Source of the DNA: Longimicrobiales bacterium
Lineage (GTDB): Bacteria > Gemmatimonadota > Gemmatimonadetes > Longimicrobiales > Gaopeijiaceae
NCBI GenBank assembly: GCA_965116905.1
Contig: OZ220732.1
Coordinates: 128,001 to 192,000 of the forward strand
Direction: 5' to 3'
DNA length: 64,000 bases
The position numbers and the translations under genes are program-made. The stretch's first letter is position 1; each line of letters opens with the position of its first letter. The notes under the pieces are model-generated. The model saw only the letters and a program-made list of their open reading frames with translations, searched no databases and was not told where the DNA came from. This document shows, one piece after another, positions 43,340-46,293 of the stretch.

Positions 43340-44512
43340 ATGCGTTCGGCCAGCGATGTCCGTGCGCCCCGGCGCTCCCTGACCGGAGCCTGCACCGCTG
43401 CGGCGCTCCAGTTCGCCATCGCCCTGCCCGCCACCGGCGCCCAGTTCCCGCAGGCCGTCAACGGCGAAGACCTCGCCGACGCGTCCGGCGATGCCATCTA
43501 CGCCGCCTCATGCGCCAACTGCCACGGCCTCGACGGGACCGGCCTCCCTCCCTCCCTGCTCGCCTTTGAAGAGGAGATCCCCGACTTCACCGACTGCGAC
43601 TTCGCCGCCCGCGAACCGGACGCGGACTGGATTGCGGTGGCTCACGAGGGCGGCCCGGTCCGCGGCTTCAGCGAAATGATGCCCGCCTTCCGCGGCGCGC
43701 TGACCGAGGAGCAACTGGCCCGCGTGATGGGCTACATTCGCACGCTCTGCACCGACGACAACTGGCCGCGCGGCGAACTCAACCTGCCTCGTCCCCTGCT
43801 GACCGAGAAGGCGTACCCGGAGGACGAATGGGTGGTCGAAATGGATCTGGATCTCGAGAGCGAGGGCGACGCCTCGGCAGCGTACGTGTACGAGCACCGG
43901 TTCGGGCCGCGCAGCCAGGTGGAACTCGTGATCCCCTATGGATGGCGGGGAGTTGGGGCCGCTGACGGGATGCGCCACGGTCTCGGTGACGTCGTGGTTG
44001 GGGTCAAGCACGCCCTCTATCACGACCTGGAGGTGGGTACGATCTTCTCGGTGGGCGGCGAGGCCATACTCTCGACCGGCGACGAGAGCATCGGCCTGGG
44101 TGCTCCCGGCAGCGCGCTGGAAGCCTTCGCCTCGCTGGGGCAGATCCTGCCCGGCGACGCCTTCCTTCAGGCGCAGGCCGGCTACAAGGCGCCCCTGTAC
44201 GCGAACGGCGCGAACGAGGGGTTCGGGCGGGTCGTGCTGGGACGGAGCTTCACACAGGGGAAGTGGGGGCGCGCGTGGACACCCATGCTGGAGGTGCAGG
44301 TCAAGCACGACTTCGAGGCGGGCGAGGAGCCGCAGTTCGATCTCCTGCCCCAGGCGCAGATCTCCCTGAACACGAGGCAGCACGTCCTGGCCAACGTCGG
44401 GGTGCTGCTGCCGGTCGGAAGCGATCACAGGCACGGCCACGCGCGACCCGTCCGCCTGGTCACCTACATCCTGCTCGACTGGTTCGACGGCGGGTTCTTC
44501 GAGGGCTGGTGA
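43340..44512 (+). CDS. Monoheme cytochrome c fused to a predicted outer-membrane beta-barrel
   Basis: Signal peptide; CANCH and MMPAF (probable Met ligand); C-terminal amphipathic beta-strands (QVELVIPY, GLGDVVVGVK); terminal Trp; RBS GGGAG. Confidence 0.78.
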   Translation: MRSASDVRAPRRSLTGACTAAALQFAIALPATGAQFPQAVNGEDLADASGDAIYAASCANCHGLDGTGLPPSLLAFEEEIPDFTDCDFAAREPDADWIAVAHEGGPVRGFSEMMPAFRGALTEEQLARVMGYIRTLCTDDNWPRGELNLPRPLLTEKAYPEDEWVVEMDLDLESEGDASAAYVYEHRFGPRSQVELVIPYGWRGVGAADGMRHGLGDVVVGVKHALYHDLEVGTIFSVGGEAILSTGDESIGLGAPGSALEAFASLGQILPGDAFLQAQAGYKAPLYANGANEGFGRVVLGRSFTQGKWGRAWTPMLEVQVKHDFEAGEEPQFDLLPQAQISLNTRQHVLANVGVLLPVGSDHRHGHARPVRLVTYILLDWFDGGFFEGW

Positions 44513-44514
44513 CG

Positions 44515-46293
44515 ATGCGAACACCACGGCGCCCACTGGCGAAGGCAGCTTATACGGTTTCCTGCATCGTGTGCCTGACCGCCGGCAGCCTTGCGATGGC
44601 CGGCACGGCCGGTCCGGTCGCCCCGGTCGGCACGGGCGGCACGGGCGGCGGCGTGCCCCAACCCGGCCGCTCCGTGCTCCATGCGCCGGACACGATCACC
44701 GTGGCCGATCCCGCCGGCCACTTCCGCACCGCCGACCGGTGCATCGCCTGCCACAAGGACGTCACGGCCGCGGACGGCACCGACGTTTCCATCGGTTTCG
44801 ACTGGCGCGCCTCCATGATGGCCAACGCCGCGCGCGACCCCTACTTCCAGGCGGCGGTTCGGCGCGAGATCATGGACTACCCCGAGGCCGCAGCCGAGAT
44901 CGAGGGGGAGTGCGCGCGCTGCCACATGCCCATGGCGACCGTCGCGGCGCAGTGGGAAGGGCGCTCCGGCCAGGTCTTCGCCAACCTGCCCATCGGCGGC
45001 GCGGAGGGACCCTACGCCGACCTCGCCGCCGACGGCGTCTCCTGTTCCCTCTGCCACCAGATCCAGCCGGACGGCCTCGGCACGGAGGAGAGCTTCACCG
45101 CCCGCTTCCACGTTTCAGCTGAAACGCCTCCCGAGGGCCGCCCCGTGTTCGGCCCCTTCGAGCCCGACGAGGGCGGGGTCGGCATCATGCACTCCGCGAC
45201 GGCCTTCCGGCCCACGCTCGGCGAGCATGTGACGTCGTCGGGGCTTTGCGCGTCGTGCCACACGGTGATCACGCACCCTGTGGCGCCTGGTGGCTCCGGT
45301 GGCGGCGACGCCCGTCCCGGTGGCCCCGCCGCACCCCCCTTCCCCGAGCAGTCTCCCTACCTGGAATGGCAGGCGAGCATCTACGCCGAAGGCCGCGAGC
45401 GCGAGCACAGCTGCCAGGACTGCCACATGCCCGTAGTCGGCGAGGACGTGCCCGTCACCCGTGTCCTGGGCCGCGCCCGCCCCGAAGTCTCCCGGCACGT
45501 GTTCCGCGGCGGCAACTTCTTCATGCTGCACATGCTCAACCGCTACCGGGCCGAACTCGGCGTCACCGCGCTGCCTCAGGAAATGGAACTTGCGGCCCAG
45601 CGCACGGCCGACCACCTCCGCACCGCCACCGCCACGGTCGAGCTCAGCGGGGTGGGCGTCGGCGGGGCACGGCTGGAGGCCACCGTGACCGTGCGCAACC
45701 TGGCCGGCCACAAGTTCCCGACCGCCTATCCTTCGCGGCGCGCGTGGGTGCGGTTCGCGGTCACGACCGAGTGGGGCGAGCGCGTCTTCGAATCGGGCGC
45801 CTTTTCCCCCGACGGCCGCGTCATCGGCGACGACCACGACGCCGACGGCTCGCGCTACGAGCCGCACTACACCGTCATCACGTCGCCCGACGAAGTGCAG
45901 GTCTACCAGGGCGTCATGGCCGACGGCGACGGCGGGGTGACCACCGGACTCATGTCCGCGCACACCTGGGTGAAGGACAACCGCATCCTCCCCGACGGCT
46001 TCGACCCCGCCCGCGCCGACCCCCGCGTGCGCGTCATCGGCCTCGCCGACGGCGACCCGGACTTCACCGCGGGCTCCGACAGGATCCACTACACGGTCCC
46101 CGTCGACCCGGCCGACGGCCCGTTCACAGTCGAGGCCGAACTCTGGTTCCAGCCGATCGGCTACCGCTGGGCGGAGAACCTGGCCGGCTACGACGCCATG
46201 GAAACGCGCCGGTTCATGCGGTACTACCGGGAGATGGCCGAGGGGTCGGCGCTGCTGCTGGCGCGGGACGAGGCGGTGAGCGACGCGAACTGA
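44515..46293 (+). CDS. Secreted pentaheme c-type cytochrome
   Basis: CIACH, CARCH, CSLCH, CASCH, CQDCH; GHKFPT motif; signal peptide; starts 2 nt after the upstream stop. Confidence 0.88.
   Translation: MRTPRRPLAKAAYTVSCIVCLTAGSLAMAGTAGPVAPVGTGGTGGGVPQPGRSVLHAPDTITVADPAGHFRTADRCIACHKDVTAADGTDVSIGFDWRASMMANAARDPYFQAAVRREIMDYPEAAAEIEGECARCHMPMATVAAQWEGRSGQVFANLPIGGAEGPYADLAADGVSCSLCHQIQPDGLGTEESFTARFHVSAETPPEGRPVFGPFEPDEGGVGIMHSATAFRPTLGEHVTSSGLCASCHTVITHPVAPGGSGGGDARPGGPAAPPFPEQSPYLEWQASIYAEGREREHSCQDCHMPVVGEDVPVTRVLGRARPEVSRHVFRGGNFFMLHMLNRYRAELGVTALPQEMELAAQRTADHLRTATATVELSGVGVGGARLEATVTVRNLAGHKFPTAYPSRRAWVRFAVTTEWGERVFESGAFSPDGRVIGDDHDADGSRYEPHYTVITSPDEVQVYQGVMADGDGGVTTGLMSAHTWVKDNRILPDGFDPARADPRVRVIGLADGDPDFTAGSDRIHYTVPVDPADGPFTVEAELWFQPIGYRWAENLAGYDAMETRRFMRYYREMAEGSALLLARDEAVSDAN

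Follow-up and report, generated by a model that had tools for sequence, protein, structure and literature searches.

A cytochrome c–beta-barrel fusion and a pentaheme cytochrome encoded side by side in a Longimicrobiales genome: a candidate outer-membrane redox module

On the forward strand of a 64,000-nucleotide stretch of Longimicrobiales bacterium DNA (contig OZ220732.1, positions 128,001 to 192,000; here called the window), two adjacent genes are predicted to encode a monoheme cytochrome c fused to an outer-membrane beta-barrel (gene 1) and a soluble pentaheme cytochrome c (gene 2). The module is real, widespread and apparently undescribed, and its architecture is well supported by structure prediction and genomics. 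As for function, we infer a Cyc2-like, independently built module that would oxidise a small solute let in through the barrel, passing the electrons inward, a scheme to which we give slightly less than an even chance. A preliminary description of the locus had offered extracellular electron transfer or oxidation of an imported substrate as functional options; the latter fits best, and a conduit of the MtrAB type to outside surfaces is not borne out. That description recognised neither the known family of gene 2 (5ZE8/ExtKL/MccSep) nor the cupredoxin that can stand in for it.

Architecture of the two proteins

Gene 1 carries a class I cytochrome c domain (residues 48-136 by Pfam, PF13442/PF00034 over cut-off), and the CANCH motif, probable Met ligand, two extra cysteines and terminal Trp listed in the preliminary description are all found. 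Of 266 family rows, 262 retain the probable axial ligand, Met114. The additional cysteines are C86 and C137, besides C18 in the leader, and the pair covaries (both present in 246, both absent in 8 and discordant in 4 of 258 rows), a pattern in keeping with a probable C86-C137 disulfide. The C-terminal barrel, on whose formation the preliminary description had staked its proposal, is predicted in an AlphaFold2 model built on 140 sequences (pLDDT, the predicted local distance difference test, 94.9; predicted template modelling score, pTM, 0.90), with twelve strands downstream of the heme domain. The claim of about 230 residues of strands ending in Trp is therefore retained for the barrel and amended at its end, as the strands span residues ~163-381 and are followed by a conserved tail of nine residues, the closing Trp being present in gene 1 and in 120 of 120 close homologs.

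The top folds for the gene 1 model (Foldseek and VIA-align) are FapF (Z 22.7, root-mean-square deviation (rmsd) 2.5, 219 aligned) and, second, the COG4313 channel Pput2725 (Z 21.9, rmsd 2.7, 217 aligned). Both alignments reach into the segment ahead of strand 1, that with FapF beginning at model residue 113 (gene 1 residue 147) and that with Pput2725 at residue 2 of the channel. In both solved structures the N-terminal segment is described as a plug of the barrel from the periplasmic side, and the N-terminal domain of FapF remains periplasmic (PMC4493636, PMC5557850); because of this placement in the solved relatives, the heme domain of gene 1 would by analogy lie in the periplasm, beneath a narrow, plugged barrel. 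Mean-field coevolution (266 rows, effective number of sequences ~125) was too noisy to position the heme domain on the barrel. The PTG-like motif of the family reads PTG in 164, STG in 29 and ATG in 25 of the 266 rows (STG in gene 1), and the polar face of the strands retains several Glu, Arg and Lys. Against PF13557 (Phenol_MetA_deg), the family proposed for checking in the preliminary description, gene 1 itself scores 15.9 bits, below the curated cut-off of 22, and 70 of 102 close family members match at E <= 0.01 (best 2.9e-6).

The gene 1 family is large, with 3,443 matches among 7,998 candidates scored in one search and 314 clusters (50% identity, E <= 1e-30) in another. Single-sequence searches of the PDB returned matches to the cytochrome domain only for gene 1 and nothing for gene 2; NCBIfam gave no family above cut-off for either gene, and the ESM Atlas gave automatically named clusters only, mostly from Acidobacteriota. 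The gene 1 query to the Atlas also retrieved a separate cytochrome c-DUF5777 cluster (59 members, mostly Acidobacteriota, score 0.94), which may be another heme-barrel fusion. A barrel-less tetraheme protein made of class I cytochrome domains was also seen (locus L002, 1465-3189; genome C1:3664762-3666705, minus strand); its last domain resembles the heme domain of gene 1 (34% identity) and has a similar Cys at the domain end.

Gene 2 begins 2 nt after the gene 1 stop codon (TGA-CG-ATG) and contains five CxxCH motifs, both as first described; no more than two motifs occur in any of 20,000 shuffles. The GC content at third codon positions (0.88 for gene 1 and 0.91 for gene 2) is in line with genuine genes. 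The gene 2 model (pLDDT 92.9, pTM 0.93) has a single whole-protein fold match, the Thermochromatium tepidum pentaheme c552 (5ZE8; Foldseek E 1.1e-15; Z 24.8, rmsd 2.9, 354 aligned), the next-best match standing at Z 7.5. The family profile likewise finds 5ZE8 at E 1.5e-5 and, weakly, MccSep at E 0.11. The beta-rich C-terminus noted earlier is present, and takes the form of a soluble immunoglobulin (Ig)-like sandwich; on the model, gene 2 combines a soluble heme domain with an Ig-like one and is no wire threading a barrel. The pentaheme cytochrome (PHC) family as described includes 5ZE8-type c552, Geobacter ExtKL and the cable-bacteria pentahemes (PMC11976967).

The catalytic heme site appears to be altered. 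The Geobacter protein MccSep is described as a periplasmic polysulfide reductase with a His/Cys-ligated heme 2 and a catalytic selenocysteine (Sec), Sec325 (PMC13510729). In gene 2, at least 227 of 228 rows retain each of Met102, Met225, Glu278, Gln279, His328, His399, Lys400 and His451, and the mature protein has no Cys beyond its five CxxCH motifs. Mapped by eye against the published peptide and homologs, the MccSep Cys239 position corresponds to Glu278 (227 of 228 rows) and the Sec325 position to Tyr405 (222 of 228 rows, never Cys, with no in-frame stop); Glu278 and Tyr405 thus appear to stand in for the catalytic Cys and Sec of MccSep. With a profile of the heme 4-5 stretch, NrfA-type proteins came out best and neither 5ZE8 nor MccSep aligned in register, and the equation of Glu278 with Cys239 therefore depends on the by-eye reading. 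A weak HMMER alignment to 5ZE8 sets Met102 on a His position; two His ligands have probably been replaced by Met in gene 2, and its likely ligands are two Met and two His, with heme 2 lined by Glu. Ten loci hold larger Acidobacteriota relatives of gene 2 (open frames of 600-920 residues with 4-6 CxxCH motifs), in which the Glu ahead of heme 5 is mostly kept and whose short flanks show no heme-barrel.

Predicted docking, gene linkage and a blue-copper alternative

The interaction of the two proteins put forward in the preliminary description is supported by a controlled complex model, ESMFold2 scoring the pair at 0.72 against 0.00 for the best control. Among solved complexes, 116 of 157 attain a mark of 0.72, and among mismatched pairs 2 of 215, a calibration that is only rough for self-built alignments; the score is support that does not establish binding. 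Contact agreement between runs is at least 73% and partner pLDDT at least 89. The confident contacts involve residues 56-61, 72-77 and 112-121 of gene 1 (the CxxCH and the Met114 loop) and residues 73-82 (heme 1), 218-228 and 315-319 of gene 2; barrel residues take no part in them. As heme 1 of MccSep is described as solvent-exposed and as the proposed entry point (PMC13510729), docking at heme 1 supports the entry of electrons into the pentaheme from gene 1. At the interface of gene 2, Asp74, Ala78, Gly94, Gly220, Ser227, Val317, Leu318 and Gly319 each show conservation of 80% or more across 104 rows paired with a barrel, whereas most of the 5 unpaired rows have other residues there, a difference confounded by clade. 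At the gene 1 interface residues, pentaheme-paired and cupredoxin-paired copies are not clearly different except at Leu121. No comparable solved complex turned up in our searches.

This geometry bears on an MtrAB/PioAB-like reading, in which the pair would be a membrane-spanning wire to minerals, electrodes or other cells. A barrel and a multiheme cytochrome do share one operon here, and hemes I, III, IV and V of the PHC family are reported to overlay archaeal nanowire hemes (PMC11976967). Against this stand the twelve strands of the barrel, compared with 26 described for PioB/MtoB (PMC13741234); a globular, periplasmic-type pentaheme that makes confident contacts with nothing but the cytochrome domain; loci that lack an outer cytochrome gene; and a genome with no decaheme ORF (open reading frame). 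The lumen of Pput2725 is given as ~10-12 Å without its plug (PMC4493636), and a 12-stranded plugged barrel is too narrow to hold a cytochrome, which makes long-range wiring to solids unlikely. We regard such a wire as highly improbable.

The two genes co-occur, as had been anticipated, and lie next to each other in Gemmatimonadota, Acidobacteriota and Gammaproteobacteria. Among 79 GTDB loci with gene 1, mostly from close kin, gene 2 lies directly downstream in 75 and is missing from three, while one more is interrupted by the end of its contig. Even samples were drawn from Gemmatimonadota (201 genomes), Acidobacteriota (251) and one gammaproteobacterial order (151). In the first, gene 1 occurs in 29 genomes, gene 2 in 22 and both in 21 (20 in tandem, one divergent); the corresponding Acidobacteriota counts are 35, 22 for close gene 2 (E <= 1e-150) and 19 for both (18 adjacent, one on two contig ends). 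Gene 1 is present in 16 genomes of the gammaproteobacterial order, and of the 15 loci retrieved 10 are paired and five are partnerless; the centre genome is paired. Metagenome loci (n=79) comprise 58 paired, one with a cupredoxin, three with neither partner and 17 too short to tell. The link is strong and not obligatory in either direction. Gene 1 matches no plasmid; five gene 2 relatives do, all unpaired. One Acidobacteriota contig has the first 285 residues of gene 1 running directly into the last 150 of gene 2, which is a deletion or a misassembly.

A second partner emerges from the unpaired copies. In 136 locus rows, where some genomes occur twice, 104 are paired, four contain gene 2 alone and 28 contain gene 1 but no gene 2. 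Sixteen of these 28 have an adjacent gene of ~245 residues, 11 have neither partner and one is truncated; the same neighbour, sought with a model built from nine of its copies, is adjacent in 0 of the 104 paired rows. It retains a His...Cys-x-x-His-x-Trp-Met pattern and matches blue type-1 copper domains and, more weakly, amicyanin; no copy exists in the host genome. At nine loci the only Pfam label of this family is carboxypeptidase-regulatory-like, yet an amicyanin-type copper site is present, and at one locus two copies flank the heme-barrel gene. In a quick tree of 99 chosen gene 1 rows, from which most near-identical sponge loci were omitted, the paired group mixes three phyla, a nested clade within it (99% support) holds 11 cupredoxin-linked and two partnerless copies, and cupredoxin neighbours recur on three further branches. 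The pattern suggests that the heme-barrel is the core and its partner exchangeable. A cupredoxin is a pure electron carrier and some gene 1 lineages have no partner, and for these reasons the barrel-linked chemistry is probably located in gene 1. Deep-branching heme-barrel genes without a redox neighbour were observed at 11 loci in three phyla.

Electron flow and competing readings

In the proposed scheme, a small soluble reductant would enter the narrow barrel and reach the plug at its bottom; candidates are a small reductant, organic or sulfur-based, or else a reduced metal ion or chelate (for example of Fe(II), Mn(II) or Cu(I)). The solute would give an electron to the His62/Met114 heme of gene 1 at the periplasmic face, from which it would pass to heme 1 of the pentaheme by heme-to-heme docking. 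The pentaheme chain would then have one of two ends, an O2- or peroxide-type sink at the heme-2 pocket (Glu278, Gln279, Tyr405) or the aerobic respiratory chain. For the pentaheme, related lineages would substitute a type-1 blue-copper protein, much as rusticyanin follows Cyc2. In this scheme the sequence motifs, the adjacency of the genes and the alternation with the cupredoxin are observed and both folds and the interface are predicted, while localisation, axial ligands, direction of flow, substrate and sink are inferred. Hemes with His/Met ligation and type-1 copper are usually of high potential. The preference for inward flow is based on the high potentials that the probable ligands and the alternative copper partner suggest, and on the host being an aerobe. 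Its genome (one contig, 97% complete) encodes two heme-copper oxidase subunits I and cytochrome c maturation (Ccm) genes, and by its GTDB relatives the window falls among sponge-type Longimicrobiales (Gemmatimonadota). Fusions of a pentaheme with a truncated hemoglobin in cable bacteria are discussed within O2 reduction (10.64898/2026.01.20.700514) and are a lead for the electron sink, no more.

Several points weigh against this scheme. The heme may be shut off by the 25-residue plug, and the predicted models of both proteins are heme-free. Conserved lumen acids are also described in ordinary COG4313 channels (PMC4493636, PMC5557850) and so are no proof of metal binding, while an Fe(II)-oxidising Cyc2 is reported to titrate at -130 mV (PMC13692758), so that ligand type leaves the direction of flow unfixed. 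No substrate gene travels with the pair across the loci compared. RuBisCO has no match in the host genome, and the host is thus not a classic lithoautotroph. The sole RNA-labelled run with this stretch is indistinguishable from DNA, with similar depth over both genes and most of 18 kb, intergenic DNA included. Two further points, which also count against the scheme, lead to alternatives.

The first is that the polar set E278, Q279, K400, R408, R409, H451, K487 and R490, found in 227 of 228 gene 2 rows, is also kept in unpaired pentahemes, so that the chemistry of gene 2 would have no need of the barrel. The barrel could then be a mere substrate channel and anchor, with a peroxidase-, oxidase- or detoxification-type reaction at pentaheme heme 2 (with its distal Glu), and the fused heme relaying between periplasmic carriers and the enzyme. 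COG4313 barrels are indeed proposed as uptake channels (PMC4493636), and MccSep is described with its active site at heme 2 and in a gene cluster shared with the porin ExtI (PMC13510729, PMC11976967). The heme-barrel is, however, also found alone or beside a cupredoxin with no such enzyme nearby, and the predicted docking is at heme 1, away from the heme-2 pocket. We consider this division of labour unlikely.

The second is that MccSep, the best-characterised relative of gene 2, is a reductase (PMC13510729); together with the description of 5ZE8 as low-potential (PMC11976967), this favours outward flow, in which the pentaheme would draw on a periplasmic pool and the barrel heme reduce a solute in the lumen, such as a quinone or, in the service of metal acquisition, a chelate of Fe(III) or Cu(II). 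A distant Shinella relative of gene 2 sits between imelysin and FTR1 iron-uptake genes, and one paired locus adjoins TonB-receptor, PKHD-hydroxylase and PepSY genes. Such iron-uptake neighbours are not recurrent among paired loci, and two invariant Met at expected His positions as well as the type-1 copper alternative would imply a high potential by the rule given above; outward flow is accordingly held to be quite doubtful, more so than the channel with its separate enzyme. The Shinella cytochrome (plasmid NZ_CP015738.1; locus L168, 5167-10638) lies amid imelysin, DUF4405 and FTR1 genes and adjoins nos genes; it is possibly a redox partner for iron uptake.

The inward, solute-oxidising scheme can be put more strongly, as a second, independently evolved Cyc2-like oxidase in which a plugged COG4313 barrel and a His/Met heme oxidise an external dissolved metal or reductant and pass the electrons to an interchangeable partner, which is a blue-copper protein or a pentaheme whose Glu/Tyr heme site would be without precedent. 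In this stronger form the proposal is a tentative one, with perhaps a third of our belief behind it. If true, about one in seven of the sampled Acidobacteriota and Gemmatimonadota genomes, including those of sponge symbionts, would gain an unrecognised route of electron uptake.

The positions of the features are collected in Table 1. An in-frame TTG at 43202 would extend the gene 1 ORF upstream; judged by the lengths and leaders of homologs, a start close to 43340 is the likelier one. Neither a promoter nor a terminator consensus was found at the locus, and an Rfam scan of window positions 36000-54000 gave no match. Across the loci compared, no third gene recurs with the pair between phyla. 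The flanking D-amino-acid-oxidase-like, acetoacetate-CoA ligase and ABC transporter genes were considered as parts of the module and set aside, as they recur in close relatives only. Elsewhere in the window, a dispersed repeat of ~250 bp lies at 50836-51086, without Rfam match; about seven further near-full copies (83-91% identity) and shorter ones are among 43 BLAST pieces of the genome, and it may be an element like a MITE (miniature inverted-repeat transposable element) or a REP (repetitive extragenic palindromic) sequence.

Table 1. Positions of gene 1, gene 2 and their predicted features in the window
Feature	Position	Strand	Basis
Gene 1: monoheme cytochrome c + 12-stranded outer-membrane barrel fusion, predicted (390 residues)	43340..44512	+	ORF, Pfam, model, fold matches
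Gene 1 probable Sec signal peptide, residues 1-34; Gln35 conserved, mature start	43340..43441	+	by eye, family alignment
Gene 1 class I cytochrome c domain, residues 49-137	43484..43750	+	Pfam PF13442/PF00034 above cut-off
Gene 1 CANCH	43511-43525	+	residues 58-62
Gene 1 probable axial Met114	43679-43681	+	conservation
Gene 1 conserved linker/plug segment, residues 138-162, probably tucked in barrel from periplasmic side	43751..43825	+	structural alignments, conservation
Gene 1 COG4313/SphA/FapF-type beta-barrel, 12 strands, residues 163-381; PTG-like motif, conserved lumen Glu/Arg/Lys	43826..44482	+	model, fold matches, alignment
Gene 1 conserved tail beyond last strand, closing with invariant Trp390	44483..44509	+	homolog alignment
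Gene 2: pentaheme cytochrome, T. tepidum c552 / ExtKL-MccSep (PHC) family (592 residues)	44515..46293	+	profile, model, fold match
Gene 2 probable Sec signal peptide, about residues 1-29	44515..44601	+	by eye
Gene 2 helical five-heme domain; invariant Met102, Met225, His328	44698..45627	+	model, alignment
Gene 2 CxxCH starts	44740, 44911, 45043, 45247, 45412	+	residues 76, 133, 177, 245, 300
Gene 2 Glu278-Gln279, invariant	45346-45351	+	alignment
Gene 2 Ig-like beta-sandwich, including invariant His451	45628..46278	+	model, fold match, alignment
Gene 2 His399, Lys400, Tyr405 (Tyr405 = MccSep selenocysteine position)	45709-45729	+	alignment, mapping by eye

Comparison with known systems

Neither a fusion of cytochrome c with a COG4313-type barrel nor this gene pair was found described in open-access PMC and bioRxiv full text, the literature covered here. 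Genome screens for outer-membrane electron exchange target Cyc2, MtrB-type or other large porins, and one published porin-cytochrome screen is described as setting a minimum of 14 strands (PMC7399161); that screen would miss a 12-stranded fusion, which may explain why such proteins have gone unnoticed. If the present reading holds, many soil, sediment, marine and sponge bacteria would have an unlisted means of oxidising or reducing compounds at the outer membrane, and the poorly understood pentaheme family (5ZE8, MccSep, cable-bacteria PHC) would gain a predicted redox partner and a natural variant of its catalytic heme site. With two genes only, the module is directly testable.

The pair is not a member of the Cyc2, MtrAB or MccSep systems, and the distinction from Cyc2 and MtrAB drawn in the preliminary description is upheld by differences in motif, strand count and heme count. 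With Cyc2, gene 1 has in common a single N-terminal CxxCH after a signal peptide (assigned by eye), fused to a (predicted) barrel, and the working scheme is alike in joining a heme-porin to a periplasmic carrier (rusticyanin or Cyc1 downstream of Cyc2/Cyt572). In the geometry proposed for Cyc2, the heme sits at the periplasmic mouth and the substrate must enter the pore (10.1101/228056, PMC13741234). The gene 1 barrel is, however, of the 12-stranded COG4313 type, whereas that of Cyc2 is 16-stranded and OprP/OprO-like; gene 1 has a full class I cytochrome domain of ~90 residues where Cyc2 has a minimal heme plug; and the PxFAR[Q/K][T/Y] sequence described upstream of the Cyc2 CxxCH (10.1101/228056) is missing from gene 1, as first remarked, and has a PxFAR counterpart in only one of 266 relatives. 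The usual partner of gene 1 is a pentaheme, and its hosts are not known iron oxidisers.

Gene 1 shares with the COG4313/SphA/Pput2725/FapF channels (PF13557) the twelve strands, an N-terminal plug (its position deduced from the aligned ranges) and the PTG-like motif at the base of loop 5-6, to which it adds the fused heme domain and the conserved tail ending in Trp; the described channels, which lack a redox cofactor, transport hydrophobic solutes or amyloid subunits. Gene 2 in turn shares with 5ZE8, MccSep, ExtKL and the wider PHC family five CxxCH motifs in a helical domain and a C-terminal Ig-like domain, and is ~100 residues longer. It lacks, on the by-eye mapping, the MccSep Cys at the heme 2 distal position (C239) and the Sec/Cys at 325, and it is paired with a heme-barrel where the ExtKL cluster has the separate porin ExtI. 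MtrAB/PioAB/MtoAB and the PCC3/PCC4 conduits likewise have adjacent genes for a barrel and a multiheme cytochrome. The former combine a 26-stranded barrel with a decaheme cytochrome, as against 12 strands and five hemes here, and the present locus is without the large barrel, decaheme or inner-membrane partner described for MtrAB and PCC3/PCC4 (PMC5566968, PMC13741234).

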